From Candidatus Kuenenia stuttgartensis (GTDB lineage Bacteria; Planctomycetota; Brocadiia; Brocadiales; Brocadiaceae), in NCBI RefSeq assembly GCF_900232105.1, contig NZ_LT934425.1:1560001-1592000 (forward strand): 32,000 bases of DNA, given 5' to 3'. The notes under the pieces are model-generated. The model was not told where the DNA came from. It did no database searches and saw nothing but the letters and a program-made list of their open reading frames with translations. How positions within the stretch are numbered: position 1 is the first letter of the stretch; every line of letters begins with the position of its first letter. This document shows, one piece after another, positions 12,579-31,659 of this stretch. Made by a program: the position numbers and the translations under genes.

Positions 12579-12620
12579 AAGCCTTCGCCTTCCTCCATTT
12601 GAAAATTTACATAAAATTAC

Positions 12621-12693: not shown

Positions 12694-15600
12694 TTATGCA
12701 TCAACCTTTATTAATTCACCATTCAAAAACTTCTTCATGAAATCATTCTCATTGCCGGCAGTGTATCCGGTTTTAACAGGATCCCAAACACCTTTTCCTC
12801 CCATGCCACCATTCTCAGCCTTTGTGATCTTTACCAATGTTTCCTTTGGCACGGTATTAATACAATGATTATCCGCTTCGAAACCAAAAATAAACTTCAT
12901 CCCGATTTTAGCCTTATGGAAAAGGCTATCCAACTGGTGCATTGGCATCGACCAATCTCTTGTAATACTCTGCTGTGAACCGTAGCGGAAGCTGGACTGA
13001 TAACCGCTCGGAGACAACGCCCTACCATCCGGTCTTGTCTCATGCGCTTGTACCGTTTTGTCGGAAGAAATCCAGGCAGAATGTTTCATCATCGTACAAT
13101 TATACGGGTATGCAGGGTTGTACTTCGCCCTCAACATAAGCCTAGATACCTTATAAAAAGAATCGTTTGGCTTCCATCCTTCATATGGTCTGTCGGCAGG
13201 GTTTGCATCAACATAAACATAGTCTCCGTCCTCAATCCCTAAATCTCTTGCGGCCTGAGGATGAATATGTATTTGATGTTCACCGACACCAGGCATTCTC
13301 TTATCCATCCTGTACGGATCTCCGAAGTTATTGTTCCAGATAAAGTTCCAATCCGTAACTGCCCACTGCGAATGCACGGTATGCCTTGATTTTGGAGTCA
13401 CGCAGTAGAAGTGATACCCTTTTTCCCACAGGAAATTCTTAGTCTTCTTTGTCTCTTCCCATGATTTCTTGATATTCCTGACAGTCCTATCCTCCCAGTA
13501 TTCAGCATTTTCCGGGATGCCATAGTCATCCGGCCGAATATAAGGATTCGTACTCACAATCGCATTTGGTAAATATGGCGTAGCTTCAGGTCCTTCGCGA
13601 TGGACAATAAAGTTTTCTCCATATTCAATAATTTCAGGCTCATCATTATAAGCCTGTAGCCTTCCAGTTGGGGTATAAAATGGCAAGCTCTCGTGTACCT
13701 GTTCCCAGAATGGATGTCTCGGATATGTCCGGAATAACAGCATCGCCACACCCGGTTCTCCATACTTTCCGTTCAATATATCCTCGCATGTGTATCCCTT
13801 CATGGTCGTGCTACCATCGAGCAATCTGTTGATATACACACTCGCTCTTCCTTCAATGGCAAATTTCCAATTGTCTTCAAATCTCTTATCTCTTAGCAAT
13901 TCACCCAATTTCGACGCCATACCCGCAAGTATTTTCACATCATCTTTTGATTCATACACAGGAGTGATACCCGTTTTCCCCCATATTTGAATAAAAGGAT
14001 TTGAACAGGAATTGGTGATTTCAAATTCCTGGAATTCAACCCATGAATTTGCCGGAAACGCAAAGTCCGCGTATTCTATCGAACCTGTTATCTCAATATC
14101 GGTTGACATAATCTGTTCAATGTTTGGATTAACATTCTTCAACATTTGATAGACATGCTTCGCATTATTGATAAGATTTACGTTGGTAAACCAGAGAACC
14201 TTAGTTGGCGAAGGCATGTGCGTTTTTCCGGTAAACACCTTACGCCCATATTTTGGAGTATTCACAATCAAAGGCCTTTCACTGTGATTCCAATAGGCAA
14301 CTTCTTCATCCAGGGCACGCCCTTTAATATTTAAATCTTTCGCAGATGCATATGGGTCTAAATTTGGTTTAAACACATCTTCCGCTACCCACCCATAAAA
14401 CCCTGGGCCACTCCATTTAGAAGCCTGAAAGTTGCCAGCTTTATAATTTCCTGCCCACGTATGTGAACCAGACCCAAAGTATCCAACATTGCCCGTTAAC
14501 ATTACCGGTAAATAGTAAGACCTGTTCATCAACGTTGCATGGAAATAGTGATTTACACCTTCCCCGTAATGGATTGCAACAGGTTTTATCGTGGCAATGT
14601 CTTTCGCCAGCCTTTCGATCAGATCTTTAGGAGAATTGGTCATGCTAACCACAGAATCAATATCATAATCCCGAAGATGTATCTTATACATTTCGAGCAG
14701 CGTCATTACCTCGATTTCTTTTCCATCGATGGTTTTCAACTTAAACGAACCTTCCAAAACAGGATCTATACCTTTTTTAACCAACGTCTCACCAACATCG
14801 TCCCGTGTTATAGCTTTTGGACCTTTTGATTTTGCATCCCAGACAACAAAATCTCCGATTATCTCCCTTTGTTCATCCTTCAGACCTTGAATATGATAAC
14901 TCGGTCCATCGGAAATATCCTGTAATTTGTAATTCGGAATAATATCTTTTGGAGAAACCCTCTTTAAAGTATCAGTCCTTATCAGCAACGGGAAGTCGGT
15001 AAACTTCTTTACATAATCGGCATCATACCATTTGTTGTCAATAAGTATTTTTGTAATACCGAGGAACAGCGCAGTATCGGTGTTGTTCCGAATAGGAATC
15101 CAGTAATCCGCCTTTTGAGCTGAAGGACTATACTCAGGGGTAATAACAACAATCTTTCCACCCCTCTCCATTACCTCTGTGACCCAATGTGCTTCCGGCA
15201 TCTTGTTTTCTATTAAGTTCTTTCCTGTTTGGATCAACAACTTTGAAAAGCGGACGTCGTTCATATCAACATCCGAAGTCTGCAGGCCGTGAGAAAAAGG
15301 ATGTCCTGGAGCCTGGTCACCATGCCATGTATAGTTCGACCAGTTTCTGCCGCCTAATGCCTGGTCAGGACCAACGCCCCGGTTATGTGCATCTACAATG
15401 GCAAGGCAATTATTAAACCGATACATTCCATATTTTCCAATTACCCCAAGAAGACCCATGCCACCACGTCCTTTGAATGTACGTGTGCCGGCGCCCTGCA
15501 TCCTGTCAACCATCTCCTTTGGATACCCCTGGTCAATAAGTTTTTGCGCGCCTTCCGGGCCGCTGTATTTTTTCGTAATATGGATTATGCCCTTTGACGC

Positions 15601-16140
15601 ATAGGTAAAGGCTTCATCCCAAGATGCCCTTAATAATTCATCATTGCCCCTGTTGTCAAACATATACTTCGTCTTGTTCTCCGGCGTCAGTTCCGGAAAA
15701 CCGTCATCCGCCCATCGCTTCCACCCTTTTCGAATCAAAGGGTATCTAAGCCGGTATGGACCGTAAACTCGCCTATGAAACGTGTACCCCTTTAAACACA
15801 TCCTCGGATTCCAGTTCCTTGTCGCCTTGTTTCCATACAAATCGCTATAATTCTGGTGGTCATAGTTTTGTTCAACCCTCATCATTACATTGTTTCTAAC
15901 AAATGCTCGTATTCTGCATGCATGTGTGTCATTCGGAGAACAACAATAAGTAAATGTACGGTCATACTGATACTGATCTCTGTATACACTTTCCCATCTT
16001 CGGTCGGGATAGGTATCTAAAGGATTATCTACCACGACTGCAGGCTTTAGCAACCTGAACGCCATTGCATTCTTAGCAAGCGTCAGGGTCGCTCCGGTTG
16101 CACCGGCTACCTGTAGGAAAGCCCTCCTAGTTAGCTTCAT
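12694..16140 (-). CDS. nxrA: Nitrite oxidoreductase / nitrate reductase catalytic alpha subunit (Mo-bisPGD, type II DMSO-reductase family) with a Tat signal
   Basis: 1148 aa. The twin-arginine signal is MKLTRRAFLQVAGATGATLTLAKNAMA. An N-terminal Cys/His cluster (YCCSPNDTHACRIRAF) is the presumed FS0 site. It is NarG-sized, and its neighbours are nxrB, an NxrC-type gamma subunit and a TorD-like chaperone. Confidence 0.9.
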   Translation of the reverse strand: MKLTRRAFLQVAGATGATLTLAKNAMAFRLLKPAVVVDNPLDTYPDRRWESVYRDQYQYDRTFTYCCSPNDTHACRIRAFVRNNVMMRVEQNYDHQNYSDLYGNKATRNWNPRMCLKGYTFHRRVYGPYRLRYPLIRKGWKRWADDGFPELTPENKTKYMFDNRGNDELLRASWDEAFTYASKGIIHITKKYSGPEGAQKLIDQGYPKEMVDRMQGAGTRTFKGRGGMGLLGVIGKYGMYRFNNCLAIVDAHNRGVGPDQALGGRNWSNYTWHGDQAPGHPFSHGLQTSDVDMNDVRFSKLLIQTGKNLIENKMPEAHWVTEVMERGGKIVVITPEYSPSAQKADYWIPIRNNTDTALFLGITKILIDNKWYDADYVKKFTDFPLLIRTDTLKRVSPKDIIPNYKLQDISDGPSYHIQGLKDEQREIIGDFVVWDAKSKGPKAITRDDVGETLVKKGIDPVLEGSFKLKTIDGKEIEVMTLLEMYKIHLRDYDIDSVVSMTNSPKDLIERLAKDIATIKPVAIHYGEGVNHYFHATLMNRSYYLPVMLTGNVGYFGSGSHTWAGNYKAGNFQASKWSGPGFYGWVAEDVFKPNLDPYASAKDLNIKGRALDEEVAYWNHSERPLIVNTPKYGRKVFTGKTHMPSPTKVLWFTNVNLINNAKHVYQMLKNVNPNIEQIMSTDIEITGSIEYADFAFPANSWVEFQEFEITNSCSNPFIQIWGKTGITPVYESKDDVKILAGMASKLGELLRDKRFEDNWKFAIEGRASVYINRLLDGSTTMKGYTCEDILNGKYGEPGVAMLLFRTYPRHPFWEQVHESLPFYTPTGRLQAYNDEPEIIEYGENFIVHREGPEATPYLPNAIVSTNPYIRPDDYGIPENAEYWEDRTVRNIKKSWEETKKTKNFLWEKGYHFYCVTPKSRHTVHSQWAVTDWNFIWNNNFGDPYRMDKRMPGVGEHQIHIHPQAARDLGIEDGDYVYVDANPADRPYEGWKPNDSFYKVSRLMLRAKYNPAYPYNCTMMKHSAWISSDKTVQAHETRPDGRALSPSGYQSSFRYGSQQSITRDWSMPMHQLDSLFHKAKIGMKFIFGFEADNHCINTVPKETLVKITKAENGGMGGKGVWDPVKTGYTAGNENDFMKKFLNGELIKVDA

Positions 16141-16185
16141 AATTTCCTACTCCTTTCTAAAAAACATTTAATAGTAATACAAAAG

Positions 16186-17157
16186 TTATATAATGTGATG
16201 AGAAATCGCTTTTCTCGATTTATACATTTCAACACATCGGTCACAAGCTCCATCTTCCGCTGACCAGTTGGGAAAGTCCTGCCTTATATCTTGAACCGTT
16301 TCTATGTCTTCTTCAAGATTTTCGACCCATTTGTATGTCCTAAACTGGCACAAGGGGCAAAGAGCGCCTGGCAAAAGAATTTTTTTCTTCTGTCTTAGAT
16401 TTTCAGGAATTTTGTCATCAGATAATCTCAGAACTTTATTAACATCATCTGCCAATTCCAATATCTTTCCGTGTGTGAGGTTTTCATCATTCCAGAGTAC
16501 ATCAAAAATCGCCTTTTTTTCCTCTTCAGAGAACCCCATATAGAGGGCAGAAAATTCTTCAAATCTGCTTTCCCTACTACCAATAGTCTCTTTGCCATCC
16601 TTCAATATGCGGCTATCTACATAAATATCCCAAAAAGTGCTGTATCGCTCCGTTACAATGCACTGTTCCATAGGATTTCCCCCCAGAAACTCACTTCTAT
16701 AACCAAACGCATCGCTTAACATATCAAGTATGTGCATTATTTCGTGCCGCAAAAATTTCTCCAGAAAAATATGATCACGAAAACGCTCCGCCAAAAGCTT
16801 TACTTTCATCCTTTTTTTTGCATTTTTCCGATTCAAATCACTTACAAGGTCAGACCCTTCATCATGCTTGCTTTTTGCTTTCACTATTACTGCACCAGCC
16901 ATTAAGTCCTCTAACTCTTTAAATTCATCAAGCGCCTTTTCCACCAGCGCAACAAATCCTAGCTTGTGAAAGAAATCCCACTCCACTTTTCTGAACTGTA
17001 TTGGTCGTTCTTCAAGAGAAAAATCCTCGTATATAGGATCAACCCGAAGATGATATTCCTCTGAAAGCTTTGTATCCCCTTGTTCTTCCTTCGCCCTAAT
17101 CGCAGTGAATACAACCTCTTCAATCAAACCGGGGTCAAACTCAAGCTTCATCATCAA
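16186..17157 (-). CDS. Hypothetical cytoplasmic protein with an HExxH metallopeptidase-like motif and a C-terminal 4-Cys zinc ribbon
   Basis: 323 aa with no signal peptide. HEIMH is at residues 138-142 (nt 16732-16746, checked on the DNA) in the context FLRHEIMHILDM. CPLC (267-270) and CDRC (305-308) lie near the C-terminus. The start ATG overlaps the chaperone stop by 4 nt (ATGA at 17154-17157). Confidence 0.7.
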   Translation of the reverse strand: MMMKLEFDPGLIEEVVFTAIRAKEEQGDTKLSEEYHLRVDPIYEDFSLEERPIQFRKVEWDFFHKLGFVALVEKALDEFKELEDLMAGAVIVKAKSKHDEGSDLVSDLNRKNAKKRMKVKLLAERFRDHIFLEKFLRHEIMHILDMLSDAFGYRSEFLGGNPMEQCIVTERYSTFWDIYVDSRILKDGKETIGSRESRFEEFSALYMGFSEEEKKAIFDVLWNDENLTHGKILELADDVNKVLRLSDDKIPENLRQKKKILLPGALCPLCQFRTYKWVENLEEDIETVQDIRQDFPNWSAEDGACDRCVEMYKSRKAISHHII

Positions 17158-17963
17158 TTATCTCCCATCTCGTCAACAGAAGAAGCGCACGATAAACATT
17201 CATCAGGAGCCCCTGCTACAACATCCTGATTTAGATCTGACTCTGTGAATGTTTCGGTCTGAACGCCCAACAAGTCCATTTCTAACTTTATAAACTCCTT
17301 CATTACTTCAGAAATGGCAAAATAAAAACCGTCTATAGATTTTCTCCCGAAAAGAAGGGCAAAAAGAGGTATCCATTTACCTGCATGTTCTTTTAAAAAT
17401 TTTTTCTGAGCATCCAGGCAAATTTCAGCCTCTTCATTTCCATGATTTTCTATTGCATACGCTTGTTTATAAAGAAGAAATTGCAGAAACTCTAATTCCA
17501 CGCTGATATGATCACAGCGTTCTTTTTCTTCTTCAGAAATATCCAGACCAAACGCACGGTAAAACCCTTGTATGTCCGCTAAATCCTGCACCTGCTGAAA
17601 CACATGAGCAGCACCATATTGACCCTCATACAGAGGACAATCCTTCGATATGGTATGCCCAACTATGCGATTATATATCCGTTGTAATTTTTCTATGTCC
17701 GCTGTACTATAGAACTCCTGTACATTTTTTAAAGATTCCAACATCGCCGTCAAACTATCACCTTCCGTGTAACATCCTTTGATCTTATCCACAAGTTCAT
17801 TAAAATCCTCGCCCTCTAAAACGGAAAGTTTTTTTTCTTCAGGAAATAGATAGCATGTTGACAATACCTGATACAAAGCACTTCTCGCCAGCAAATTCCC
17901 GACTTCTGCAACTTGGTCAGTTTCCTGTAGATCACTATTATTCACAACCATAAAATACCTCAA
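17154..17963 (-). CDS. TorD/NarJ/DdhD-like redox-enzyme maturation chaperone for NxrA
   Basis: 269 aa, cytoplasmic and all-helical in appearance. LLARSALYQVLSTCYLFPEE...FYRAFGL...ELEFLQFL is the pattern I associate with TorD-family chaperones. It lies 2 nt after the nxrB stop and has a CLSC motif near its acidic C-terminus. Confidence 0.7.
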   Translation of the reverse strand: MRYFMVVNNSDLQETDQVAEVGNLLARSALYQVLSTCYLFPEEKKLSVLEGEDFNELVDKIKGCYTEGDSLTAMLESLKNVQEFYSTADIEKLQRIYNRIVGHTISKDCPLYEGQYGAAHVFQQVQDLADIQGFYRAFGLDISEEEKERCDHISVELEFLQFLLYKQAYAIENHGNEEAEICLDAQKKFLKEHAGKWIPLFALLFGRKSIDGFYFAISEVMKEFIKLEMDLLGVQTETFTESDLNQDVVAGAPDECLSCASSVDEMGDN

Positions 17964-17965
17964 AA

Positions 17966-19198
17966 TTAAATCGAGTTATAATGCTTATCGGGTCTAATGT
18001 GTATCGGTTCTTCCACCGTAGTTCGTACCACTTCCTTGCCATCTTCGCCAAATCCAATTACCGTGTCATTATACATCGTAAATTTTTTACCGTGGATCTC
18101 CGTCTCAAACACCTTCGGGCCTTCTTCGATCTTATATTCATACACAATTGTCTGAGTCATCCTGAACAATGACATTACCGCTAGCAATTCCCTTGAAGGC
18201 ACCATAAACTTTTCAATTGCCTCATCCACACCTGGCCCAAACATCTGTCTTAAATATGCCCTTGGAGCCCATCTTGGAGGAATATAATAAATGTTAGGTT
18301 CCGTGCCAAACTGTGGATACAGTGGCAGTGCTATCTTTTGATGTCTTATTAACCATGTAATCGGATTTTTCGGGTTGTCGTCAAGGAATCCCTGTAAACG
18401 TATTTGCCCAACACAAGCAGACATACATCTCGTTTCCATCGGACGTCCGTCCGTCAGTGAATCACGACCCTCAATTCTCGGATAACAGGCAATACACTTT
18501 TCACTAACCCTGGTCAAACCCCTATACATCGGCTTCTTATAAGGACACTGCTCCACACACTTCCTGTAGCCACGGCACCGTTTTTGGTCTATCAGCACAA
18601 TCCCATCTTCTTTTCTTTTGTAAATAGCCTTTCTGGGACAGGCCGCCAAACATCCGGGATAAGTACAATGATTACATATCCTCTGAAGGTAAAAAAACCA
18701 GCGGCTATGCTCCGGCAACGTTGAATATTCTCCCGGCTGATTGCTGCTCTTCGCTGTATCTTCTCCAAAATTCGGCGACCGCCACTCCTTGTCTTCCGGA
18801 ATATACCCCACTGCCCACTGGTTAATATTCTTCTTTTTTGCCACCTCGAAAATGGTATCCCCCTCATAGGTGCCATAAGGCGCTCCTGTACCATATTGCG
18901 AGGTCTCTTTGTCTTTATCATCTGTGTACCAAATGTTATCAGGACTATCAATCAACTTGAGCGTCTTAACATCCCATGATTGCGGAAATCCACCGTAAGG
19001 TTTTGTCTCGACGTTATTCCACCACATGAACTCCTGCCCTTTATTAAAAGTCCAGGTACTTTTACATGCCATGGTGCATGTTTGACATGCAATACACCTG
19101 TTAATATTAAACACGGCAGCAAATTGATGTTTCGGCCTGGATTCAAAATAGGGATACTCCATACGTCTCCCTAAATGCCAGTTATGTACAAGTGTCAT
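17966..19198 (-). CDS. nxrB: Nitrite oxidoreductase / nitrate reductase beta subunit (four Fe-S clusters)
   Basis: 410 aa. CIACQTCTMAC, CNHCTYPGCLAACP, CRGYRKCVEQCP and CIACYPR...CMSAC are NarH-type ferredoxin motifs. It has no signal peptide, so export would be by Tat hitch-hiking with NxrA. Confidence 0.9.
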   Translation of the reverse strand: MTLVHNWHLGRRMEYPYFESRPKHQFAAVFNINRCIACQTCTMACKSTWTFNKGQEFMWWNNVETKPYGGFPQSWDVKTLKLIDSPDNIWYTDDKDKETSQYGTGAPYGTYEGDTIFEVAKKKNINQWAVGYIPEDKEWRSPNFGEDTAKSSNQPGEYSTLPEHSRWFFYLQRICNHCTYPGCLAACPRKAIYKRKEDGIVLIDQKRCRGYRKCVEQCPYKKPMYRGLTRVSEKCIACYPRIEGRDSLTDGRPMETRCMSACVGQIRLQGFLDDNPKNPITWLIRHQKIALPLYPQFGTEPNIYYIPPRWAPRAYLRQMFGPGVDEAIEKFMVPSRELLAVMSLFRMTQTIVYEYKIEEGPKVFETEIHGKKFTMYNDTVIGFGEDGKEVVRTTVEEPIHIRPDKHYNSI

Positions 19199-19251
19199 CT
19201 TCTAACTCTCCTTTCGATCAACAACACAAATCTAACATTTTTAAAATTTAT

Positions 19252-20220
19252 TTATTGCCATGCAATTCTTTCCAACGACAGCGGGTGCCATTGTATAGAA
19301 ATGTTTTTTTGCCCGTTTCTATCTTCTCTATCACCATTCCACACTGCCATATTGAAGTAAGTGCTTTCCCCCGGCACAAACTGAACATCCAGAGGATCTC
19401 CCGTATTTAACGACCGGCAAAACACCACAGTCCATTTCTTGTTTTCAAATTTACTGCACCCATCCACGTCCTGATGATCCTGTGACGTTAATGTACCAAA
19501 ACCTTCAGCATTTAAATCTTCAACGGCTCTACCCCGAGGCAAAGAAAGCAAATTATGAGCAGCATACCCACCTGACAATTCAGCAGCACTCTGTATCACT
19601 CCTTTATGATAATTTACACTGTGCGGGTTAGTACTGAAATCATCGTGCATGTTAGGATATCTCGCCGGACATTCCTCTATGCCACCAGTAGCTAGCAAAT
19701 CTGCTTCCCAGTCAGCCTTCCAATGCCACAAATTTACAGGCTTTTGCCTATCGCCCATTCTAGGGCTGAATGGCTCTTCCGGACTTATCGTAATCTTCCC
19801 CAAGGGAAACATTAGTGCAGCCCCATCTCTAAACTCTTGAGTTGCGATAGCCTGTTTATTATCGGTGGCATCGTCCCATATCACCTGGAAATAAATCGTA
19901 ATTCCATCGTGAATAGCCTTTATCTCTGCAGAATTCACCGAGCCCCCTCCGTTGGGAAACGCCTTATCTTGCTTTTGTAATTTAACCTGTACCCCTTCGG
20001 CATTTTTAAACGCACCTTCCAAAGCACCAACGGTGATATGCGCGGGGACATCAATTTGCATATATTTCACGTTCAAAACTTCTTTTGCCGGCGTAAGCTC
20101 TTCTTCCGCCACGCCTTTTACCCCTTCCGCTTCCTCCGCGATACATAGCGCAACGCTCAAAAACAAACATCCCAGGAGGGCTACACTACTACTCCCCAAT
20201 AAGCGATAAAATTTTTTCAT
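19252..20220 (-). CDS. nxrC: NXR gamma subunit, heme-b-binding EbdC/DdhC/ClrC family, Sec signal
   Basis: 322 aa. The signal is MKKFYRLLGSSSVALLGCLFLSVALCIAEEA. There is no CxxCH. The blocks WDDATDN...FRDGAALMFP...PRMGD...VNLWHWKADW...AVWNGDREDRNGQK are shared with the C-terminal half of ORF 25052..26659. A strong SD (GGGAGGAG) precedes the start. Confidence 0.8.
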   Translation of the reverse strand: MKKFYRLLGSSSVALLGCLFLSVALCIAEEAEGVKGVAEEELTPAKEVLNVKYMQIDVPAHITVGALEGAFKNAEGVQVKLQKQDKAFPNGGGSVNSAEIKAIHDGITIYFQVIWDDATDNKQAIATQEFRDGAALMFPLGKITISPEEPFSPRMGDRQKPVNLWHWKADWEADLLATGGIEECPARYPNMHDDFSTNPHSVNYHKGVIQSAAELSGGYAAHNLLSLPRGRAVEDLNAEGFGTLTSQDHQDVDGCSKFENKKWTVVFCRSLNTGDPLDVQFVPGESTYFNMAVWNGDREDRNGQKNISIQWHPLSLERIAWQ

Positions 20221-20606: not shown

Positions 20607-21167
20607 CTACCGACCAGGACCATGGCTGCCTGGCTGATCAAATAGCCAATCCCTGTTTTTTTTATGACAAGCAAAACATGTTTTTTCTATAAGGTCAGCA
20701 AAAGCCTTTAACGTTTCCTCCTGACTCCCCTCCATTGCCATCTTTCTCACATTCAATGCTTTATAGACTATTCCACTTTGGAACAAAGCAAATTCCTCTC
20801 TAAGTTTTGTTATTTTTCCGGCGTCTTTAGGGTCAATACCCGCGCGTTCAAACCATTCGTTCTTTTTAGGATCAAACGGAAAGAAGAACTCACTTATTTT
20901 GTAACTTTGATCTACTACAGCGCCAGCCTCATTTGCCACATATTTCAAATTATTTTCCAGAATACCCGATAACATATTAGTCAGACGTTTTTCAATATCC
21001 TTCATCAACTCCTGCGTTGGCTCAATAACCCCTTCATGTTCAGCAGCTTTTCCGCTTGAACCCATAGCCTTGTGAGTAAACATGCTATTCCCAATACCTA
21101 ACATAATTAATGCCAACACGCCAAAAACAACATATTTCATTTTTATCATACCCATAAAATCCCACAC
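20607..21167 (-). CDS. Small secreted or anchored monoheme cytochrome c with CxxCH near the C-terminus (class-II / four-helix-bundle-like)
   Basis: 186 aa in the track. The hydrophobic N-terminus is MKYVVFGVLALIMLGIGNSMF, and a single CFACH lies 18 residues from the C-terminus (nt 20664-20678). The body looks helical. The track start is a GTG; ATGs at 21155, 21149 and 21140 are alternatives. From memory, this position corresponds to the Kuenenia gene reported as the NXR tubule-forming subunit (unverified). Confidence 0.6.
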   Translation of the reverse strand: MWDFMGMIKMKYVVFGVLALIMLGIGNSMFTHKAMGSSGKAAEHEGVIEPTQELMKDIEKRLTNMLSGILENNLKYVANEAGAVVDQSYKISEFFFPFDPKKNEWFERAGIDPKDAGKITKLREEFALFQSGIVYKALNVRKMAMEGSQEETLKAFADLIEKTCFACHKKNRDWLFDQPGSHGPGR

Positions 21168-21615
21168 CTTTCTTCGTAATTTTCACTAACAGAGAACTTT
21201 GCGCAAAAAAACCTTTCCTTAAACCAAAGCTAGAACTGCGCAAACTTCATTCCCTTTAAAAGATGTTCGCTTGACAACAAATAAAAACAAATTGTTACTC
21301 ATTTAATTACGCCATTATACAACATTACAAAACTACCCTTTTTTATACTGTCAATAAATGGACACCGTATCATAGTATTTCTATTTTGAAATCTATAATT
21401 CAAAAATGCAAACGAATGTCGCTTTCATATTTTGTATTTAGCATTTCGGATTTCGCAATTAAATATTAGGGCGTATTTTAGCCTATCGGCATCTGTATCA
21501 AAAAACGCTAGTAACGCATTGCCTGAACAGAACTAAAAGGAGCAACATGTGAAATGTTTTGTCTATTGTTATGGAAGGAAATCAACTGCGGCTGTACGAG
21601 GCTATGCCAGAAAAA

Positions 21616-22920
21616 TTAGTGCGAATGGGATAAATCTTTTCCCATATATTGAGATTTTACCTCATTCACTATTTCTTCCGTAATTTCCTTATAGCCTTTC
21701 TCATTGGCATATTTCTCTATTCTTTTCCTCACTATACCCCTGATAAAAGAAGGAATACGTTCGGTTTGTTCACGCGCCACATTCGTCCAAATTAAAGGCA
21801 GGCATTCCGTGGAAGAATCTTTTTCCTCATCCTCCCCCAAACCGGCTAAAACAGTTTTCAGTGTACGATCCTTTGCATCGCCAACAGTTTTTTCCGATAC
21901 CTCAACAGAACGTACTGTGGGATCTGCAACTGATGCTATGTTGCCTCCGGTTAACATAATATTGCACGGTGCAAGTCTTAGCAAGTTTTCGGCTGTACTA
22001 CCGATGTCTAAGCCATTTGTATTATGAATCCCTGTTTTTCCTACAACCAGCAGCGAAGGCTGTCCTTTTTTCAAGTACCGCAACACCTGGTCAAATGGTT
22101 TTCCGTCCAATAAGATGGAAGATATTGCTACGCCCTCTTTTTTTGCGATACAACATGCGTTATCAAGATGGCTTTGATAAATCTTAGCAAGTCCTTTATC
22201 TATTATTTCCTCATGAAGAGTTTCTTGTTCCTTAAATCTGAAAATTTTTCCGGCTTCTTCAGAAAGTACTTTTGCTATACTTTCAAATGCCACGCGGTGA
22301 TAATGAGGATCGTATATCGATATCGCATCGATCTTTAAATGAAATGACCTTGAAAAAGAAACTGCCGACTTAATCCCTTCTAACGATTGCATACTACCAT
22401 CGACCGCAACAACAAGACGCTCCCCCAACTCTCTTTTCTTTACCACGAGAACATCTGTTTTTAAGCGCCTTACAACACGTTCGCAAACACTTCCAATAAG
22501 ATTTTCATTGACAGAAGCAAGCCCTAGTGCCCCTATGATTACCAAATCATAACCACCGCGTCTTGCTTCCTTGATTATTTCACAATAATTTTTACCTTCC
22601 AGCAAAATGTCTTCATGTTCAACATTTGCGCTTCTGCATTTCTTCTTGAAGACATCAAGGTACGACTCTGAAATCATCTTCAAACCCTGGTTAATTAGTG
22701 ACGTATGTAATTCGCGCTGTCTTTGCAACTCTTTTTCATCCTGGTACTTTTCCGGCAATCCTTCCTCCATGTCACGAAAGCGCCTCTGGTGCAATGACGC
22801 GTCATAAACATGGCAACCTACCAGAAGTGAGCCGTATTTTAACGAGATCGCAATGCCTATATCGATACAATAATCAGAGTATATTGAATTATCTATCGGT
22901 ATTAATATCTTTTTATACAT
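21616..22920 (-). CDS. Cytoplasmic tandem universal-stress-protein (USP) domains plus a C-terminal PCP_red-like (ChlB/BchB C-terminal) domain
   Basis: 434 aa with no signal peptide. Both USP domains keep the ATP-binding G-x2-G-x9-G-[ST] motif (GALGLASVNENLIGS at 130-144; GKTGIHNTNGLDIGST at 294-309). The tail LIWTNVAREQTERIPSFIRGIVRKRIEKYANEKGYKEITEEIVNEVK resembles the W..A...L..IP.FVRG.VR...E..A.E.G...IT pattern of Pfam PCP_red, recalled from memory. Confidence 0.7.
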   Translation of the reverse strand: MYKKILIPIDNSIYSDYCIDIGIAISLKYGSLLVGCHVYDASLHQRRFRDMEEGLPEKYQDEKELQRQRELHTSLINQGLKMISESYLDVFKKKCRSANVEHEDILLEGKNYCEIIKEARRGGYDLVIIGALGLASVNENLIGSVCERVVRRLKTDVLVVKKRELGERLVVAVDGSMQSLEGIKSAVSFSRSFHLKIDAISIYDPHYHRVAFESIAKVLSEEAGKIFRFKEQETLHEEIIDKGLAKIYQSHLDNACCIAKKEGVAISSILLDGKPFDQVLRYLKKGQPSLLVVGKTGIHNTNGLDIGSTAENLLRLAPCNIMLTGGNIASVADPTVRSVEVSEKTVGDAKDRTLKTVLAGLGEDEEKDSSTECLPLIWTNVAREQTERIPSFIRGIVRKRIEKYANEKGYKEITEEIVNEVKSQYMGKDLSHSH

Positions 22921-25051: not shown

Positions 25052-26659
25052 TTATTGATCCTCTTCTTCTGACTTAGGCGGAAACCTTCTTAATCGAGCA
25101 AGGAACCAAAGCTCTACACTCGCTCCCATAACAACAGCAACTAATACATAGACAAATACCGTTTTAGGCATTGGTTTTTCAAGTAAGATATAATACCATG
25201 ATGATACCGATTTTTGACTGCCCGCATCACCATTAGAACCATCCCACACTGCAAAGGCAATTGGTATCAGCTTACCTATCTCAAATTGTATATCCTTCTT
25301 CCCGTCCTCTGTCTTTAAAGGCCGTTTAAATACTACCTTCCACCGACCATTATCATGCAATCCTTCCCCCATGACATCCTGATTTTCCGGCGACTGTATA
25401 GAAATTTTCTTAAATCCCTTAGCATTTAGCTCTACGATCTCGCCTGGTTCATTTGCAGGCATTTCTGCTATTGAACCAAAACCTTCTTTCCAACAGGCCT
25501 TCCATTGCCACAGGTTGACCACCCCGCCGGAATCACCCATTCCAAAATAAGGTTTTTTTAGCGATTCGGGTATTTTTACGGGAAATTGCAACGAAACGGC
25601 ATCCCTGAAAATATCCTCCTGCAGGTTTGTACGATCATCCCATTCTACGAGAAAAGCAATCTCTCTATCATTGTATAGCCCCCGAATCATCATAGAATCG
25701 ATCGCAGGCTCCCACAACCGTGGATGTGCAACGATCTGCCCTGCTAATGGAATCTCCAGAGGCGCTGCTAATCCCCAAACTTCATCTGCAGGATGGTCAG
25801 GCAATTCACCTTCTTCCAAAAGCTTTACCTTTACAACAACATCAGAAGCCATTTTCTTTGACAGACTTTCCACATAGTGGGCCAAACTCCACCGTTCCTC
25901 ATCACTAAGCGTTTCTTTATAAGAACCCATCGGAGTCTCGTTAAATCCGGTAGAAATCGTCCGATAAATATCACCAGCCGTGCTCCCCCCTTTATAGTTC
26001 CACGATTGCGTCAAATCCCTCGCACGATAAGGCATGCCCCACTGCGTTTGCAAAGCAACCGTGAGCGGCCCATTACCCCGCCCTTCTTCCCCGTGACAAT
26101 TAAAACATTTCACTTGTTTAAATAGTTCTCGGCCTTTATCAATACTCTCCTGGGTAGCAACTGCGCTTTCGACACTCAACACTGCAGGAGCTGTTTCTTT
26201 CTTAAATTGTTCATTAAACGTCTTTATATAATAAATTACCTGCCATCTTTCCGCTTCGCTGATAGTACTCCAGAACGGCATCGCCGTTCCCTCTATACCG
26301 CTCGTTATGATACGAAAAAGATCTTCATCCGTCGGCACAGAACCAAATGGCGTGGACCTTACCTTAAACTCATTACGGGTAAAGTTCCGCGGTCTGGGAA
26401 ACATAGTTCTGGAAGATGGTCCATCACCGGTACCGGTTATACCGTGACAATACCAGCATCTTTTTTCGTAAACCTTTTTTCCTTCTGCTACCGCATTCTG
26501 GTCTTCCGGTAATTTTTGAGGCGTCTCACGTTTGTACGTTCTGAAAAAGTGAGAGGCTTGCGCCTCAACCATATCCGCTTTGCAAAAAGCCACAATACCA
26601 AAAGCAATCAAGCTAAAATTAATTACTTTACTTTTAAACAGTTTTATCATTGTAGTCAT
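25052..26659 (-). CDS. Fusion protein: diheme cytochrome c, an NxrC/EbdC-like heme-b domain and a C-terminal TM anchor
   Basis: 535 aa with a signal peptide. CWYCHGITGTGDG and CFNCHGEEGRGNG are followed by VEWDDRTN...FRDAVSLQFP...FGMGD...VNLWQWKACW...AVWDGSNGDAGSQK, which is block-for-block similar to NxrC (19252..20220). It ends in the TM helix VFVYVLVAVVMGASVELWFLA. Confidence 0.8.
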   Translation of the reverse strand: MTTMIKLFKSKVINFSLIAFGIVAFCKADMVEAQASHFFRTYKRETPQKLPEDQNAVAEGKKVYEKRCWYCHGITGTGDGPSSRTMFPRPRNFTRNEFKVRSTPFGSVPTDEDLFRIITSGIEGTAMPFWSTISEAERWQVIYYIKTFNEQFKKETAPAVLSVESAVATQESIDKGRELFKQVKCFNCHGEEGRGNGPLTVALQTQWGMPYRARDLTQSWNYKGGSTAGDIYRTISTGFNETPMGSYKETLSDEERWSLAHYVESLSKKMASDVVVKVKLLEEGELPDHPADEVWGLAAPLEIPLAGQIVAHPRLWEPAIDSMMIRGLYNDREIAFLVEWDDRTNLQEDIFRDAVSLQFPVKIPESLKKPYFGMGDSGGVVNLWQWKACWKEGFGSIAEMPANEPGEIVELNAKGFKKISIQSPENQDVMGEGLHDNGRWKVVFKRPLKTEDGKKDIQFEIGKLIPIAFAVWDGSNGDAGSQKSVSSWYYILLEKPMPKTVFVYVLVAVVMGASVELWFLARLRRFPPKSEEEDQ

Positions 26660-26736
26660 TAGCTCTTCATTAAAATTAACATTAATTTCAAATTTTTAAA
26701 TACCGACAAAGCTGGACGCCGCCAGACAAGGTTCTC

Positions 26737-27507
26737 TTATTCTGCTTTTTCTCTTTGCCGCGGCATCACACCTGCCGTATCGTATTCTCCCATGATAATC
26801 TTCCACATTTGCTCATCTTCCAAATCACCTTCCCATGCAGGCATTGCAGAGTCCCACGGTGTGGATTCTGAGGGGAGACCAGGACCTCCCTCCTTAATTC
26901 TCCAGAAAAGATAGTTGTCAACCACCGTTGCAATTGTACCAGGGTCCTGGAAATTAATTGGCCTCAGGCGAAAAGAATTCGCAAACGGCCCGTTGCCGTC
27001 GGCCTTTGAGCCATGGCATGGGCGGCAATACGCCTGAAAAAGCACCTTCCCTTCCTCAACACATCGCCTTTGAGTATCCGCATCTTTTCCTCTAAATGGA
27101 TTTTCAAGCTTCTCATATTTTTGCGGCAGGGTAGGGTGCTGAATTCTTAATTCAACGGGTGAAGCTGCTCCAGGCAGAGAATAAGAATAAACAAACCAAC
27201 CTACAACAAGCGGAAAGGCCATAAGAAATATTTTCTGCAAAAACATCTTAAGGAAGGCCCCTTTACCCGGCAATAAAAACCCTAAAAAATCGGCAAATTT
27301 CTGATTACTTGTCGTAGCGTAAACCAAACCTGCCAAAATCCCCATAATCAAGTACCATGTCATCAGCGTACTTGGAGTCGGCATAGGATGCCCTTTATCC
27401 ATTAATACCTGAAAAACCCACGGAGATACATATTTCAAGAATAAAAATAAAAATACGACTGCCGCAACAACCCAAAACATTAAATACGGACTTCGCTTAT
27501 TCCCCAT
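26737..27507 (-). CDS. Polytopic (about 3 TM) membrane protein with a C-terminal monoheme cytochrome c domain
   Basis: 256 aa. Hydrophobic segments are MFWVVAAVVFLFLFL, WYLIMGILAGLVYA and IFLMAFPLVVGWFVY, followed by CRPCHGSKADGNG. Confidence 0.75.
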   Translation of the reverse strand: MGNKRSPYLMFWVVAAVVFLFLFLKYVSPWVFQVLMDKGHPMPTPSTLMTWYLIMGILAGLVYATTSNQKFADFLGFLLPGKGAFLKMFLQKIFLMAFPLVVGWFVYSYSLPGAASPVELRIQHPTLPQKYEKLENPFRGKDADTQRRCVEEGKVLFQAYCRPCHGSKADGNGPFANSFRLRPINFQDPGTIATVVDNYLFWRIKEGGPGLPSESTPWDSAMPAWEGDLEDEQMWKIIMGEYDTAGVMPRQREKAE

Positions 27508-27557
27508 TAATAAACACTCCTAACGTTAACCATCGCCCTAACCATCTCAACCAAGAC

Positions 27558-28508
27558 CTACTTTAAACTTCTCAAATATTCGATTACTGCATAAAACTGG
27601 CGCACACTTAACAACTCACCTATATTTCCAGGCATAATAGAGACTTCCTGCTTCTTCATATCTTCAATCTCATCTTTCGGAATAACCACCTCTTCCACAG
27701 AACCGCTTTCTTCCAGTATCAACGTAAGTTCTTCTTCAGTATCGCTTTTTATTAGTCCGTTGTAAGGGATACCATCTGCTGTTATTACAAAGACCGTCTC
27801 ATAGCCCTTTACGATAACAGCGCTTGGCTCCAAGATAGACTCAACAAAATACTGTGGAGTCTGAATTGCGCCAATGCCTGTGAGTTCTGGCCCTACTTTT
27901 TGACCCTTGCCGTTTACCATATGACATTTGCCACAAGTAACATCAAGCGATTCATCAAAAAATACCTGTTCCCCCTCTTCCGCGGTAACTGCCAAAGGTG
28001 GAACCCAAGGCTTCACCTTTGTCTTAGAAGCTTCCGGTATTTTATCCTTAAACTTCATAATGGCATCTAAATCCGGCTCCCCCCCCAGGGATTGCAAATA
28101 GGCCAGAACAGCAAGTATTTTCTCACGCGACAACATGATCGGGGGATCATACACCCTCGGCATAATCTTATCGAACCCCTCCACCACGTATTTTTCCGGG
28201 TCAATTATCGATTCTACTAAATACTCTAAACCACTGGACAAACCAAGCTCTTTCGCCCTTTCCTCCGCCCTCTCTGCCAATCCTTCCTGATCAGGCCCTC
28301 TTGTAGCACTGCCGCTGGAACCTATTTTGTGGCATGTACTACACTGCCCGTCGCCCCAGAAAATTTGCTCTCCGGCTTCAGCAGAAACACCGGTTGCTGT
28401 CCCCCCCCCGCCCGTACCAGACAAACCAGTAACATAGACGGTGATATACATGTAAAACCCTATGACAGCAACTCCAAATGCAACAATTTTTAACATCGTC
28501 TTATTCAT
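27558..28508 (-). CDS. Membrane-anchored diheme cytochrome c
   Basis: 316 aa. The N-terminal TM is MLKIVAFGVAVIGFYMYITVYV, followed by a Gly-rich linker. CSTCHKIGSSG and CGKCHMVNGKG are present. Confidence 0.8.
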   Translation of the reverse strand: MNKTMLKIVAFGVAVIGFYMYITVYVTGLSGTGGGGTATGVSAEAGEQIFWGDGQCSTCHKIGSSGSATRGPDQEGLAERAEERAKELGLSSGLEYLVESIIDPEKYVVEGFDKIMPRVYDPPIMLSREKILAVLAYLQSLGGEPDLDAIMKFKDKIPEASKTKVKPWVPPLAVTAEEGEQVFFDESLDVTCGKCHMVNGKGQKVGPELTGIGAIQTPQYFVESILEPSAVIVKGYETVFVITADGIPYNGLIKSDTEEELTLILEESGSVEEVVIPKDEIEDMKKQEVSIMPGNIGELLSVRQFYAVIEYLRSLK

Positions 28509-28633: not shown

Positions 28634-30733
28634 CTATACTTCGGCCTCAGTTTTCACTTTTTTATCTCCCAGGTTTGCCAGCCAAAACACAAATGCCACC
28701 AAGCCAAGGAATAACGCCACAATCAAGCCAACAATCCTTCCCATATAAGCAAGCGTCGGAGTATACGCCCCTTGAGATGTATCCTGCATAAGCCCGTATA
28801 CATGCCAATCCATACGCAAGCCAGAGCGAATAAACCCCATAAGCCCCATCAAAATGACAATTACTATACATAGCATTAGCAATGCATATTGAGACCTTAC
28901 TGGCATTTTACCCCAAACTATGTCACCCACGACTTTTGCTTTACGGAATACCAAAATATCAATAACCGTATTCATAATCAAACAGCTCATCACAATCGAA
29001 ACCTGGGTCACAGATAAATAGCGTAGCACAATATTAGCCTTCTGCATAACCTGAAAACCATAATACCAAAAATAGAGCACGGCAATGCCTGCCGTCACCA
29101 GAAACAACATGGATTGCGCAAGCTTGCCTTTATTCCTGAATGTTAAAAAGGCAGCAAGACAAACAGCAAACGACTGTATATAAAGTGCTGTGACCAATGG
29201 TTTCACATAAATCTTCGTTTGTGCTTCCAGATCGACAAAACTTAACGAAACCGCATAAGAAAGCAGCATCAGCAAACAAAAGCCCAGCGCAGAGAAAATA
29301 CCTATCATGCCCACCTTGCCTTGCTCAGAAAAGCGTACTGTCTCGCCCTTATTACTTCTGCGATATATGAGAAAAGAAAAAAATGTCGACAAAATAATAA
29401 GATTTACCACTGCATTCTTGGCAGCCATGACCCCAAAATATTTTGAGAAAGGATGATACTGCTCGCCAATCATCGCCCTTTCTTCTCCGCTGAGAGGTAG
29501 ATTATGGGGGGTAAGCCATACTGCAAAACACATAAAAATAACAACATTAAGGTATTTAATATACCCCGTGTACCTCTCTGACCCCTTTATCCTTCCCATC
29601 CCAAGCCATAAATAATAGTTAGCGCCTATAAACAACATGCCGATAAGTATCGCCTGGATAATAAATGTCCATGAAAAAGCCCCACCCATCATAATATTGC
29701 CCATCACAGGACTAGCACTATAAACCTCACGTCCCAGCCAATATCCCGCAAAAGGCAATGGAATTAATGCTCCAATACCTATAAAATTCCCAACATAGCC
29801 CATCCAGTCATAATGCGCCCTTTCTTCTTTGGTCTTCGAATTTAAGAATTTAACCGCGGCATAAGCACCGACCACAAAACCGCCAAAACATACATTCGCA
29901 ATCAAACGATGAAGATTGACGGGCATCCACAGCTCATTATAAAATGCTTCGTACAAACTCAGCAGCCTGCCAGTTTTCATACTAACACCTGAAGGACTCA
30001 TCATATATGTCGCCCATGAATTAGTTATAAACATAAGCCCTGTGCCAAAGAGATTAAGCATGATGCCAAGCGCAATGTGGCACCACTTCTTCGTCGAAGT
30101 CCCTTTTAGGACATCCCACGAATAATAGTAACCATACAATGTGAACGCCTCGCCAAAAAACATTAGCGAATAGACATACATTGTTGGAGCAAACACACTG
30201 GTCAAATGGCTCATAAATTCAGGGTATAAACCGAACAAACAAAAGGCCAGCAGCCCCCCTAGCGAGGCTGTTGTTGCAAATGCAGCAGACAACAACTTGG
30301 TAAACTCCTTCGCCATCTTATCATATTTTATATCGCCGCTTTTAAATCCAACGATCTCGACAATAACCGCAAATATTGGCACACCAAGTACAAATGCTGC
30401 GAACATCAGATGCAGCTCAGACACGATCCATACAACCACACGCGAATCCAGTCCAAAGAATGACCGGTATTGAACCGGCTCCAACTCACCCTCTTCTTCG
30501 GCTGGCGCCGCGCCTTCTACCACACCTTCAGCAGTACCCTCCGCAGATTGCGGCGCTCCGGAATCCGTCTCGCCCTCAAACGCAGGCAATTCAACACCGA
30601 TGTCTTCAGCATGCGCAACAGAGAGCAGCGAGATATCCTGCCGGAAAAAAGAAAGAGCCGCACCGAATGCAATAACCAACAAAAGTACAAAAATGCTTTT
30701 TTGCTTTATCGACAATAACTTATAATTATTCAT
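28634..30733 (-). CDS. Cytochrome bd oxidase subunit I (CydA)-like polytopic membrane protein. It is enlarged and has no CydB partner.
   Basis: 699 aa. By-eye alignment to E. coli CydA gives SRVVVWIVSELHLMFAAFVLGVP vs SRLQFALTAMYHFLFVPLTLG (His19 equivalent), FFGEAF vs FFLESTF, KKWCHIALGIMLNLFGTGLMFITNSW vs VQHMCVTWLVALGSNLSALWILVANGW, and PVNLHRLIANVCFGGFVVGAY vs QVKFVHTVASGYVTGAMF (His186 equivalent). An extra N-terminal TM and an acidic Ala/Glu/Gly-rich stretch are present. No cydB-like gene lies next to it. Confidence 0.75.
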   Translation of the reverse strand: MNNYKLLSIKQKSIFVLLLVIAFGAALSFFRQDISLLSVAHAEDIGVELPAFEGETDSGAPQSAEGTAEGVVEGAAPAEEEGELEPVQYRSFFGLDSRVVVWIVSELHLMFAAFVLGVPIFAVIVEIVGFKSGDIKYDKMAKEFTKLLSAAFATTASLGGLLAFCLFGLYPEFMSHLTSVFAPTMYVYSLMFFGEAFTLYGYYYSWDVLKGTSTKKWCHIALGIMLNLFGTGLMFITNSWATYMMSPSGVSMKTGRLLSLYEAFYNELWMPVNLHRLIANVCFGGFVVGAYAAVKFLNSKTKEERAHYDWMGYVGNFIGIGALIPLPFAGYWLGREVYSASPVMGNIMMGGAFSWTFIIQAILIGMLFIGANYYLWLGMGRIKGSERYTGYIKYLNVVIFMCFAVWLTPHNLPLSGEERAMIGEQYHPFSKYFGVMAAKNAVVNLIILSTFFSFLIYRRSNKGETVRFSEQGKVGMIGIFSALGFCLLMLLSYAVSLSFVDLEAQTKIYVKPLVTALYIQSFAVCLAAFLTFRNKGKLAQSMLFLVTAGIAVLYFWYYGFQVMQKANIVLRYLSVTQVSIVMSCLIMNTVIDILVFRKAKVVGDIVWGKMPVRSQYALLMLCIVIVILMGLMGFIRSGLRMDWHVYGLMQDTSQGAYTPTLAYMGRIVGLIVALFLGLVAFVFWLANLGDKKVKTEAEV

Positions 30734-30790: not shown

Positions 30791-31534
30791 TTATTTTTTC
30801 TGATACACAAAATCTACGACCACTTCCCCACCGGCCGTTACGACAGCCTCACTCTTTCTCTTACCCAGCTTCTCTTGCCATACTGATATCTCATACGTAC
30901 CGGCAGGAACATTGTCTATCCTGAATTTACCATCAGCATCCGTAACCGCAAAGTAAGGATTCCCCTTCACCAAAAGGTACGAACTCATCCACTTATGAAC
31001 ATCACACGTTATTTTCACTATTTCAGGAACATCAAACTTCTTTACCATTTTGCCATTACCGGAAACACCTTCATTAAAAGCAGGGTTTCTAATCGACCAT
31101 GAGTGCAGATTATGCATAATGGGGTCACTGTTCAGCAAATTCACTTCGGTACCCGCACACACCGCAACAACGTGTGGTTCAAATACGCAGCCTTTCTGGT
31201 CCAAGGAAACAGGAGTCGTATCCAATGCCTTTCCAACCTCAATACTGTCCAAAGACACAACCGCATTCTTGATGCCCATATTGCCCGAATTAATCACCAG
31301 ATCTTCTGACGCCTTCAACCCATGACCACATGTCTGCTCATCTTTATCAATCTTCAACATCTTTGCGGCAGGCACACCACCCTCAAGCTTTACCGTACCT
31401 GCAATTGTCCCGCCGTTTTTCACTTCAATCACATTATAAACAGGCGCTTTCCCCTTTGCCATTACCGTTTGATTAACGCTCACCAAACTTAGCACAATAC
31501 CACTTACCAAGATAACAATGTTTAAGCTTTTCAT
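30791..31534 (-). CDS. Secreted cupredoxin-like protein with a CarboxypepD_reg-like C-terminal domain. First gene of the cluster and paralog of 11850..12578.
   Basis: The signal is MKSLNIVILVSGIVLSLVSVNQTVMA. Candidate Cu ligands are MHNLHS and CDVHKWM (C-x2-H-x2-M). The tail is YFAVTDADGKFRIDNVPAGTYEISVW. I prefer the ATG at 31534 because the 5 upstream codons in the track (ATGGAGGGTGGAGTG) read as its Shine-Dalgarno sequence. Confidence 0.6.
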   Translation of the reverse strand: MKSLNIVILVSGIVLSLVSVNQTVMAKGKAPVYNVIEVKNGGTIAGTVKLEGGVPAAKMLKIDKDEQTCGHGLKASEDLVINSGNMGIKNAVVSLDSIEVGKALDTTPVSLDQKGCVFEPHVVAVCAGTEVNLLNSDPIMHNLHSWSIRNPAFNEGVSGNGKMVKKFDVPEIVKITCDVHKWMSSYLLVKGNPYFAVTDADGKFRIDNVPAGTYEISVWQEKLGKRKSEAVVTAGGEVVVDFVYQKK

Positions 31535-31630
31535 CACTCCACCCTCCATACTTCCAAATATCCAAAATTAACAACAGAAACCATCTGTTAAATGCACAAC
31601 AAAATACGAATCATATCAAAACGGTCGGAT

Positions 31631-31659
31631 ATGATACTTTTGCAAAATTAAATTGTCAA
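31631..31659 (-). promoter_or_regulatory. Candidate sigma-70-type promoter for the nxr supercluster
   Basis: On the minus strand: TTGACA (31659-31654), a 17-nt spacer, then TATCAT (31636-31631). This is about 85-100 nt upstream of the first cluster gene. An 8-bp inverted repeat (31610-31617 / 31628-31635) overlaps the -10 region. Confidence 0.35.

Follow-up and report, generated by a model that had tools for sequence, protein, structure and literature searches.

kustd1712 of Candidatus Kuenenia stuttgartiensis, a CydA homologue of the OR-N2 type in a conserved module with c-type cytochromes

Introduction

Nitrite oxidoreductase (NXR) makes nearly all nitrate on Earth, and the exit of electrons from this enzyme is an open question in nitrite oxidisers and in anammox bacteria. 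The main candidate for a membrane link of NXR is a gene module around a bd-like protein, which in Nitrospira and Nitrospina is also a candidate terminal oxidase. Lücker 2010 and de Almeida 2011 are said to be among the descriptions of these 'cytochrome bd-like oxidases' of Nitrospira, Nitrospina and anammox bacteria. Here we analyse the gene at 28634-30733 on the minus strand of a 32,000-nucleotide stretch of the genome of Candidatus Kuenenia stuttgartiensis (NZ_LT934425.1, positions 1,560,001 to 1,592,000), called the window below; positions are counted from its first letter. The gene is kustd1712, which is already annotated as a bd-like CydA homologue.

In Kuenenia, Nitrospira and Nitrospina, Lücker et al. 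(2013; PMC3578206) pointed out a 'conspicuous cytochrome bd-like oxidase'. According to these authors it has 14 transmembrane (TM) helices, its N-terminal part aligns with CydA and the haem-b ligands are conserved, while membrane helices stand in for the Q-loop and residues that bind quinol are missing. They suggested a role in reverse electron transport similar to that of alternative complex III (ACIII), an account that was restated by Mundinger et al. (2019) for bd-like_3/4 of Nitrospira. In Kuenenia kustd1712 was listed as cydA and its transcription reported (Hu et al. 2019; PMC6423088), and in a fractionation study of 2025 (PMC11897245) the kustd1705-1712 products were recovered with the membranes. 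The His19 ligand is said to be conserved in all CydA paralogues. Proteins of the kustd1712 type were classed as the OR-N family by Murali, Gennis and Hemp (2021). Their signature of OR-N2 consists of H99/Y183/E190/Y197/Y199/H213/H269/M430-N434/S563/W569 (Suppl. Table 6), and they describe typical OR-N2 operons as containing an EbdC homologue besides several cytochromes c. Later genome papers note that neither composition nor function has yet been confirmed by experiment, and the paper on the NXR structure (PMC8387239) does not mention the genes of the bd-like module. The gene, its features and the idea of a repurposed oxidase are thus already known from the Kuenenia annotation and the literature of 2010-2021. 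Our analysis makes small additions, i.e. the reading of the N-terminus as a signal peptide, a lineage-specific acidic tail, a clade-specific insert and the occurrence of the module in many phyla, mostly without NXR nearby.

Homology to CydA and assignment to OR-N2

The open reading frame (ORF) starts with ATG and encodes 699 amino acids (aa) identical in sequence to kustd1712 of K. stuttgartiensis. This identity and the membership of the protein in a conserved module (see below) are hardly open to doubt. Pfam PF01654 (Cyt_bd_oxida_I) matched kustd1712 with E=2.8e-22 and 79.3 bits at a gathering cut-off of 26.2; the match was limited to aa 97-343, corresponding to profile positions 2-243 of 418. 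A scan of NCBIfam gave no meaningful match and no CydA equivalog. In searches of PDB sequences 5doq_A was found at 5e-13 by phmmer with kustd1712 and at 3.5e-18 with the family profile, and both searches returned CydA chains only, over the N-terminal 190-230 residues only. A profile of canonical CydA, made from the E. coli protein and eight plasmid-borne cydA genes, had invariant columns at H19, E99, E107, S140, N148, H186, K252, M393, E445 and GRQP. Alignment of the family profile with this canonical profile by hhalign paired aa 102-348 with E. coli 13-256 at a probability of 97.9% and E=3e-13. The CydA homology of kustd1712 is far above chance.

A preliminary description of the gene had aligned the N-terminal helices with CydA by eye and had seen histidines at the positions of E. 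coli His19 and His186. The alignment was borne out by Pfam, phmmer, hhalign and Foldseek (see below), and the histidines are His108 and His275 in phmmer and profile alignments. The likeness to CydA that had also been claimed for the last two helices was weak. A restricted hhalign search matched aa 567-698 to E. coli 382-506 with E=1.6e-4, at a probability of only 50%. In the register of that alignment Ser637 falls on Glu445, Arg640 on Arg448 and Trp643 on Trp451, as it does in weak PDB matches. The C-terminal half modelled alone (pLDDT 75.5) yielded only noise in a Foldseek search of the PDB, the best E being 0.45. Evidence for a CydA-CydB fusion or an internal duplication was not obtained, as hhalign of aa 345-699 against CydB and against the N-terminal half of the protein itself gave E=0.5-0.7.

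At the ten positions of the OR-N2 signature kustd1712 has H108/Y188/E195/Y202/Y204/H219/H275/M436-N440/S637/W643, a full match. By residue signature and operon content kustd1712 is of the OR-N2 type. It shares with OR-N2 the changes of E99 to Tyr, of E445 to Ser and of M393 to a Met/Asn pair, the Trp six residues after the Ser and the lack of a quinol site. The operon likewise contains cytochromes c and an EbdC (EB_dh) homologue (25052-28508) and no adjacent second CydA-like gene. The distance between Met and Ser is 133 residues in the Nitrospira reference but 201 in kustd1712, which amounts to two more TM helices. OR-N2 proteins are stated to have 14 TM helices, whereas the model of kustd1712 has 15 core helices and a signal segment; relatives without aa 460-536 would have 13 plus 1. 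kustd1712 is itself one of the published bd-like oxidases, whose genes are described as clustering with those of alt-NxrC and of two cytochromes c close to nxr. The published account differs from ours in nothing essential; it has 14 helices where we count 15 core helices and a signal peptide.

Haem ligands and channel residues

Conservation of residues was counted over 90 family proteins from 80 genomes. The counterparts of E. coli His19 and His186, i.e. His108 (nt 30410-30412) and His275 (nt 29909-29911), were conserved in 89/90 and 90/90 proteins. Glu195 (nt 30149-30151), equivalent to E. coli Glu107, was found in 88/90 and His219, equivalent to His126, in all 90, and Asn238-Ser-Trp corresponded to the Asn148-Gly-Trp motif of E. 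coli in the profile alignment. On the other hand, E. coli Glu99 is replaced by Tyr188. Because of this replacement the canonical proton-channel pair is incomplete, though Glu107 is kept as Glu195. No equivalent of the quinol-site residues Lys252 or Glu257 was detected in kustd1712 by hhalign, the alignment stopping ahead of the Q-loop.

Met436 was invariant (90/90), and its spacing from His275 matches that of H269 and M430 in the OR-N2 reference. From the conserved ligands we infer a b558-type haem on His275 and Met436 and a second haem on His108. Position 637, which corresponds to the ligand position of haem b595 or haem d, is Ser in 85/90 proteins and Glu in none. Besides the canonical ligands the loops on the positive side of the membrane (p-side) contain the histidines His644 (89/90), His427 (88/90), His307 (82/90) and His410 (63/90), which could be haem or metal ligands.

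Compared with canonical CydA (E. coli 6RKO, Geobacillus 5DOQ) kustd1712 is alike in the fold and sequence of TM1-6, in His19, His186, Glu107, His126 and Asn148-x-Trp, and has a weak R-x2-W motif ahead of the last helix in common. In contrast to canonical CydA it is devoid of the Q-loop and Lys252, is without CydB or CydX in the window, and has six extra TM helices, a signal peptide by our reading (see below) and c-type cytochromes as partners.

Predicted structure and N-terminus

A model of kustd1712 was built with AlphaFold2 from 28 diverse homologues (pLDDT 84.5, pTM 0.83). It showed 15 core membrane helices in addition to the N-terminal signal segment. In a Foldseek search of the PDB the ten best matches were all CydA chains with E from 4.5e-8 to 9e-5, followed by CydB chains with E >= 0.04. 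5doq_A was superposed at 2.3 A over 253 columns, the tight fit being confined to the N-terminal part. The preliminary description had proposed hydrophobic segments in place of the Q-loop, and in the model the TM helices 354-381 and 389-406 indeed occupy this position. They are followed by a p-side loop (aa 407-435) that is conserved across the family. Four more helices (468-596) were predicted between the Met436 helix and the helix ending with Arg636-Ser637.

The N-terminal hydrophobic segment, modelled as a helix at aa 10-36 with low confidence, had been taken for an extra TM helix. The segment ends AHA/ED, and AxA-type sites occur at the matching position in orthologues and in distant relatives, such as ...TGMA/EE, ...ALAQG and ...AFAQG. 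The segment is most likely a cleavable signal peptide that is common to the family. The N-terminus of CydA is located on the p-side, so that a signal peptide would be required to carry a long tail across the membrane.

The acidic stretch noted earlier exists, with 14 Asp/Glu and no Lys/Arg, yet it covers nt 30479-30607 and not 30464-30607. The pLDDT was below 50 over aa 30-85. Among the sequences compared the tail varied in length and was missing in several Scalindua orthologues, which marks it as lineage-specific. Another family member from the representative search, P0165, has an independent poly-Asp/Glu N-terminal tail with 36 Asp/Glu in 115 residues at the same position. This suggests that acidic p-side tails arose more than once.

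A conserved five-gene module

Relatives were searched in one genome per species, and at least 595 genomes encode one. They were found, among other groups, in Planctomycetota (anammox bacteria and others), Nitrospirota, Nitrospinota, Poribacteria, Methylomirabilota/Rokubacteria and Gemmatimonadota, and furthermore in Acidobacteriota, Chloroflexota, Myxococcota, Latescibacterota and KSB1. Gene neighbourhoods were counted in the best 80 loci, which represent more than 15 phyla. The module consists of a cupredoxin-like protein, the bd-like protein, a dihaem cytochrome c, a monohaem cytochrome c and the EB_dh/dihaem protein alt-NxrC; these domain assignments were confirmed by Pfam scans of example loci. 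The dihaem cytochrome c was present in 78/80 loci and directly downstream of 78 bd-like genes, the monohaem cytochrome c in 68/80 and alt-NxrC in 70/80. The cupredoxin-like protein was found in 60/80 loci and was the upstream neighbour of 44 bd-like genes. Thus the term 'orphan' used in the preliminary description is misleading, as the gene belongs to a conserved module.

Its statement that no CydB or CydX gene is adjacent was correct. None of the ORFs of the window, the part of the genome searched, matches CydB or CydX. When E. coli CydA and CydB were compared by phmmer with every ORF in the 80 loci, neither gave a hit; as CydB is poorly conserved, this search is insensitive. The tight packing of the genes leaves no space for cydB within the module. 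As a positive control, cydB was located directly downstream of 8/8 canonical plasmid cydA genes.

NxrA or NxrB was encoded within 10 kb in 11/80 loci, i.e. in anammox bacteria, one Poribacteria, one Rokubacteria and one Nitrospinota, and the remaining 69 had no NXR within this distance. Haem-copper oxidase genes were found within 10 kb in 17-21/80 loci and cytochrome b genes in 6. In Gemmatimonadota (L069:15058-19887) and Poribacteria (L059:3157-5012, 19094-21697) the module lies inside a respiratory island with COX2/COX1 and haem O synthase, which in Poribacteria additionally holds cytochrome b/petD genes.

Proteins with a C-terminal PCP_red domain (PF08369) recur beside the module. Those combining Usp and PCP_red, the kustd1706 type, occurred in 42/80 loci, radical SAM+SPASM+PCP_red proteins in 22/80 and small PCP_red-only proteins in 26/80; ParA/NUBPL-like ATPases were present in 12/80. 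The genes of the PCP_red proteins and the ATPases may jointly serve the maturation of the module.

Two clades of bd-like proteins

A neighbour-joining tree of the 90 bd-like proteins, calculated with the variable region removed and without bootstrap values, splits the family into two clades. The clade of the anammox proteins carries an insert of 77-82 aa, and the 11 NXR-linked loci all belong to it. In the other clade the insert position has 26 aligned residues, with 13-26 aa in most members; it takes in most loci linked to haem-copper oxidases, and a few of its members have independent inserts at the same spot. Ligand and channel residues were equally conserved in both clades. In four loci of Nitrospirota (L027, L033, L035, L041) there are tandem modules, one of each clade.

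Function of kustd1712 and its module

We favor, with moderate confidence, the following mechanism for kustd1712, the polytopic membrane subunit of a cytochrome-c-linked module; we do not regard it as part of a CydAB quinol oxidase. Its conserved partners consist of c-type cytochromes anchored in the membrane, an EB_dh haem-b domain and a cupredoxin-like protein, with the haem partners on the p-side. The signal peptide would put the N-terminus and the acidic tail on the p-side, which is the anammoxosome lumen in anammox bacteria. The CydA core, made up of TM1-6 and the Met436 helix, would bind the low-spin b558-type haem via His275 and Met436 near the p-side, and the second haem would be placed under His108, the site of O2 reduction in true bd oxidases. 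The third haem site, ligated by Glu445 in CydA, would be altered by Ser637. Because this site is altered and the quinol-binding Q-loop is gone, electrons would enter or leave via haems of the partner subunits, namely the c-type haems and the EB_dh haem b, and not via quinol. These subunits would be able to dock NxrAB, and exchange with NxrAB would run through alt-NxrC on the p-side. Electron input from c-type haems is likely. It is also presumed for the OR-C family, i.e. CydA homologues fused to cytochrome c domains that have lost the quinol site as well; OR-C proteins, however, have 8 helices and retain Glu99 as well as Glu107, and kustd1712 is without CxxCH, the c-haems of its module being carried by other subunits. 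On the opposite side of the membrane (n-side) Glu195, His219 and Asn238 would form a proton path to a proton-consuming reduction at the His108 haem, for which NXR or cytochrome c would deliver the electrons. The acceptor could be O2 in aerobic lineages; in the anaerobe it could be O2 or NO, which would be scavenged, or another acceptor. That terminal chemistry takes place at the His108 haem is a tentative part of the proposal.

Several points weigh against this view. Kuenenia is an anaerobe, and O2 reduction can thus not be the main role of the protein there. Haem-copper oxidase genes adjoin the module in some loci, so that the module need not itself be an oxidase. With the loss of Glu99 and Glu445 the canonical di-haem O2 site may be absent. 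The haem content is deduced from conserved ligands alone, and the direct hhalign pairing of Met436 with Met393 was not significant (E=0.24). Finally, in the searchable literature on purification, cryo-EM or activity of a bd-like or OR-N complex we found no biochemical data for any OR-N2 protein.

The most serious competitor is an 'alternative-complex-III-like' oxidoreductase between NXR or cytochrome c and menaquinone, with a new intramembrane quinone site in the bd-like subunit. It would move nitrite electrons uphill to the quinone pool by reverse electron transport, or quinol electrons to NXR when nitrate is reduced. The hypothesis goes back to Lücker 2013, Kartal 2013 and Mundinger 2019 and has been put forward in the literature for exactly this gene cluster; in essence it is shared by the preliminary description, which saw a bd scaffold repurposed for quinone/haem-b electron transfer. 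The repurposing itself agrees with the loss of the Q-loop, Lys252/Glu257, Glu99 and Glu445 and with the lack of CydB in 80 loci, but domain scans and alignments revealed no quinone-binding residue or subunit in kustd1712 or the module, and the canonical quinol-binding residues are all lost. A new pocket could be shaped by the two TM helices at the Q-loop position together with the highly conserved loops aa 306-355 and 408-431. The module resembles ACIII (ActABCDEF), its proposed functional analogue, in being a membrane complex of many subunits, several of which are c-type cytochromes anchored in the membrane; unlike ACIII it has neither an NrfD/PsrC-like quinone subunit (ActC/ActF) or a NarI-like one nor the Fe-S subunit ActB, and the Foldseek match to ActC (6btm_C) was noise with E=2.8 and a probability of 0.21. 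It is established physiology that anammox bacteria require a path from NXR to low-potential acceptors, and it fits that all NXR-linked loci fall into the clade with the two-helix insert, yet most loci, 69 of 80, are without NXR nearby. Going by standard potentials each electron passing from nitrite (+430 mV) to menaquinone (-74 mV) would have to climb about 0.5 V, and the bd scaffold has no known pump. We consider the quinone role rather unlikely. The oxidase-like reduction ranks above it by a small margin because nothing quinone-binding is detectable, because the half of the scaffold with the O2 site is best conserved and because no coupling device is evident for the uphill step. A narrower proposal, which we regard as doubtful, is that the insert-bearing OR-N2 clade, NXR-linked in four phyla, would be a respiratory complex dedicated to an energy-transducing coupling of NXR with the membrane. 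In a strict anaerobe the bd-derived haem site would then serve a chemistry other than that of O2, e.g. menaquinone exchange linked to the proton motive force or reduction of N-oxides.

Alternatively kustd1712 might be mainly a membrane anchor or assembly scaffold for the cytochrome c subunits, alt-NxrC and NXR (tubules), with its haems a wire or vestigial and no catalytic site of its own. This would account for the loss of Glu99, Glu445 and the Q-loop, the alt-NxrC domain type is one that docks the AB subunits of type II dimethyl sulfoxide (DMSO) reductase enzymes, and the lineage-specific acidic tail could serve docking. However, His108, His219, His275, Met436, Glu195, Lys439, Arg636, Arg640 and His644 are near-invariant across more than 15 phyla, which argues that cofactor and proton chemistry are retained, and the partner subunits have TM anchors of their own; a mainly structural role is improbable. 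The Pfam match and names given in databases, e.g. 'cytochrome ubiquinol oxidase subunit I', would fit an ordinary cytochrome bd that oxidises quinol, with kustd1712 as subunit I and with genes for CydB/CydX at another place in the genome. Yet just the N-terminal 243 of the 418 Pfam positions match and an equivalog match is missing, Q-loop, Lys252, Glu99 and Glu445 are absent, there are 15 core TM helices instead of 9, and CydB is found in 0/80 loci while cydB adjoins every canonical cydA of the control. This last explanation is very improbable, and for kustd1712 the ordinary CydAB quinol oxidase is close to refuted.

The nxr cluster and other features of the window

The gene order of the window is that of the nxr cluster kustd1699-kustd1713, gene for gene. 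In anammox bacteria the bd-like module is transcribed ahead of nxrCBA. The DNA upstream of the bd-like operon is AT-rich and non-coding. Scans for promoters and terminators did not give results above background, and the total of promoter-like sites did not exceed the expectation from shuffling. The features and their coordinates are collected in Table 1.

Table 1. Positions of features in the window and, where indicated, in related loci (aa, numbering of kustd1712 unless stated otherwise; nt, numbering of the window)
Feature	aa	nt	Strand	Basis
N-terminal hydrophobic segment ending AHA/ED, probable Sec signal peptide	1-42	30608..30733	-	Kyte-Doolittle peak aa 12-30
Acidic low-complexity tail, predicted disordered, p-side	43-85	30479..30607	-	composition, pLDDT
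CydA TM1-TM6 core	97-348	29690..30445	-	hhalign E=3e-13; Foldseek 5doq_A
Q-loop replacement: two predicted TM helices and conserved p-side loop with His410, His427	350-435	29429..29686	-	AlphaFold2 secondary structure
Met436, p-side start of TM9, candidate second b558-type haem ligand (=Met393)	436	29426..29428	-	invariance, spacing
Extra p-side-loop histidines His427, His410, His307	427, 410, 307	29453-29455, 29504-29506, 29813-29815	-	conservation
Clade-specific two-helix insert, TM10-TM11	460-536	29126..29356	-	alignment and neighbour-joining tree
RSGLRMDWH, counterpart of canonical E445-x-G-R-Q-P-W	636-644	28802..28828	-	hhalign, E=1.6e-4
Promoter-like site ahead of first operon gene, 11/12 match, weak		31631..31659	-	motif scan
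Cupredoxin-like protein kustd1713, H...C-x2-H-x2-M, first operon gene		30791..31549	-	motif; Pfam CarboxypepD_reg in C-terminal part
Membrane-anchored dihaem cytochrome c kustd1711		27558..28508	-	two CxxCH, N-terminal TM
Membrane-bound monohaem cytochrome c kustd1710		26737..27507	-	one CxxCH, TM segments
'alt-NxrC' kustd1709: two cytochrome c domains, EB_dh haem-b domain, C-terminal TM anchor	497-515 (anchor, kustd1709)	25052..26659	-	Pfam EB_dh 2.7e-29, two CxxCH
PCP_red-type proteins		window 21616-22920; L076:6245-9885; L078:14684-16105, 18569-19945		Pfam PF08369
NXR core downstream, same orientation		12694..20220	-	Pfam; order = kustd1700-1704
NxrC		19252-20220	-	Pfam
NxrB		17966-19198	-	Pfam
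TorD-like chaperone		17154-17963	-	Pfam
Protein of 323 aa at the kustd1701 position, between nxrA and the TorD-like chaperone		16186-17157	-	no Pfam match
NxrA		12694-16140	-	Pfam

Homologues of the protein of 323 aa were located beside nxrA in just 2/80 loci, from Poribacteria (L017) and Rokubacteria (L023). The whole cluster is flanked by two paralogous cupredoxin-like proteins, kustd1713, which has been named blue copper protein (PMC11897245), and a second one at 11850-12641 (minus strand). In both the H...C-x2-H-x2-M motif is followed by a CarboxypepD_reg-like beta-sandwich.

Two further genes of the window showed unusual features. prfB (release factor 2; 8236-9382, plus strand) has an apparent classical +1 programmed frameshift: a short ORF from the ATG at 8236 stops at CTT TGA T (about 8302-8308), after which the main ORF goes on in the +1 frame; as listed, the main ORF begins at position 41 of the PCRF profile. 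In the SpoVG homologue at 5643-6098 (minus strand), aa 54-80 are an insertion of the double zinc-ribbon (DZR) type.

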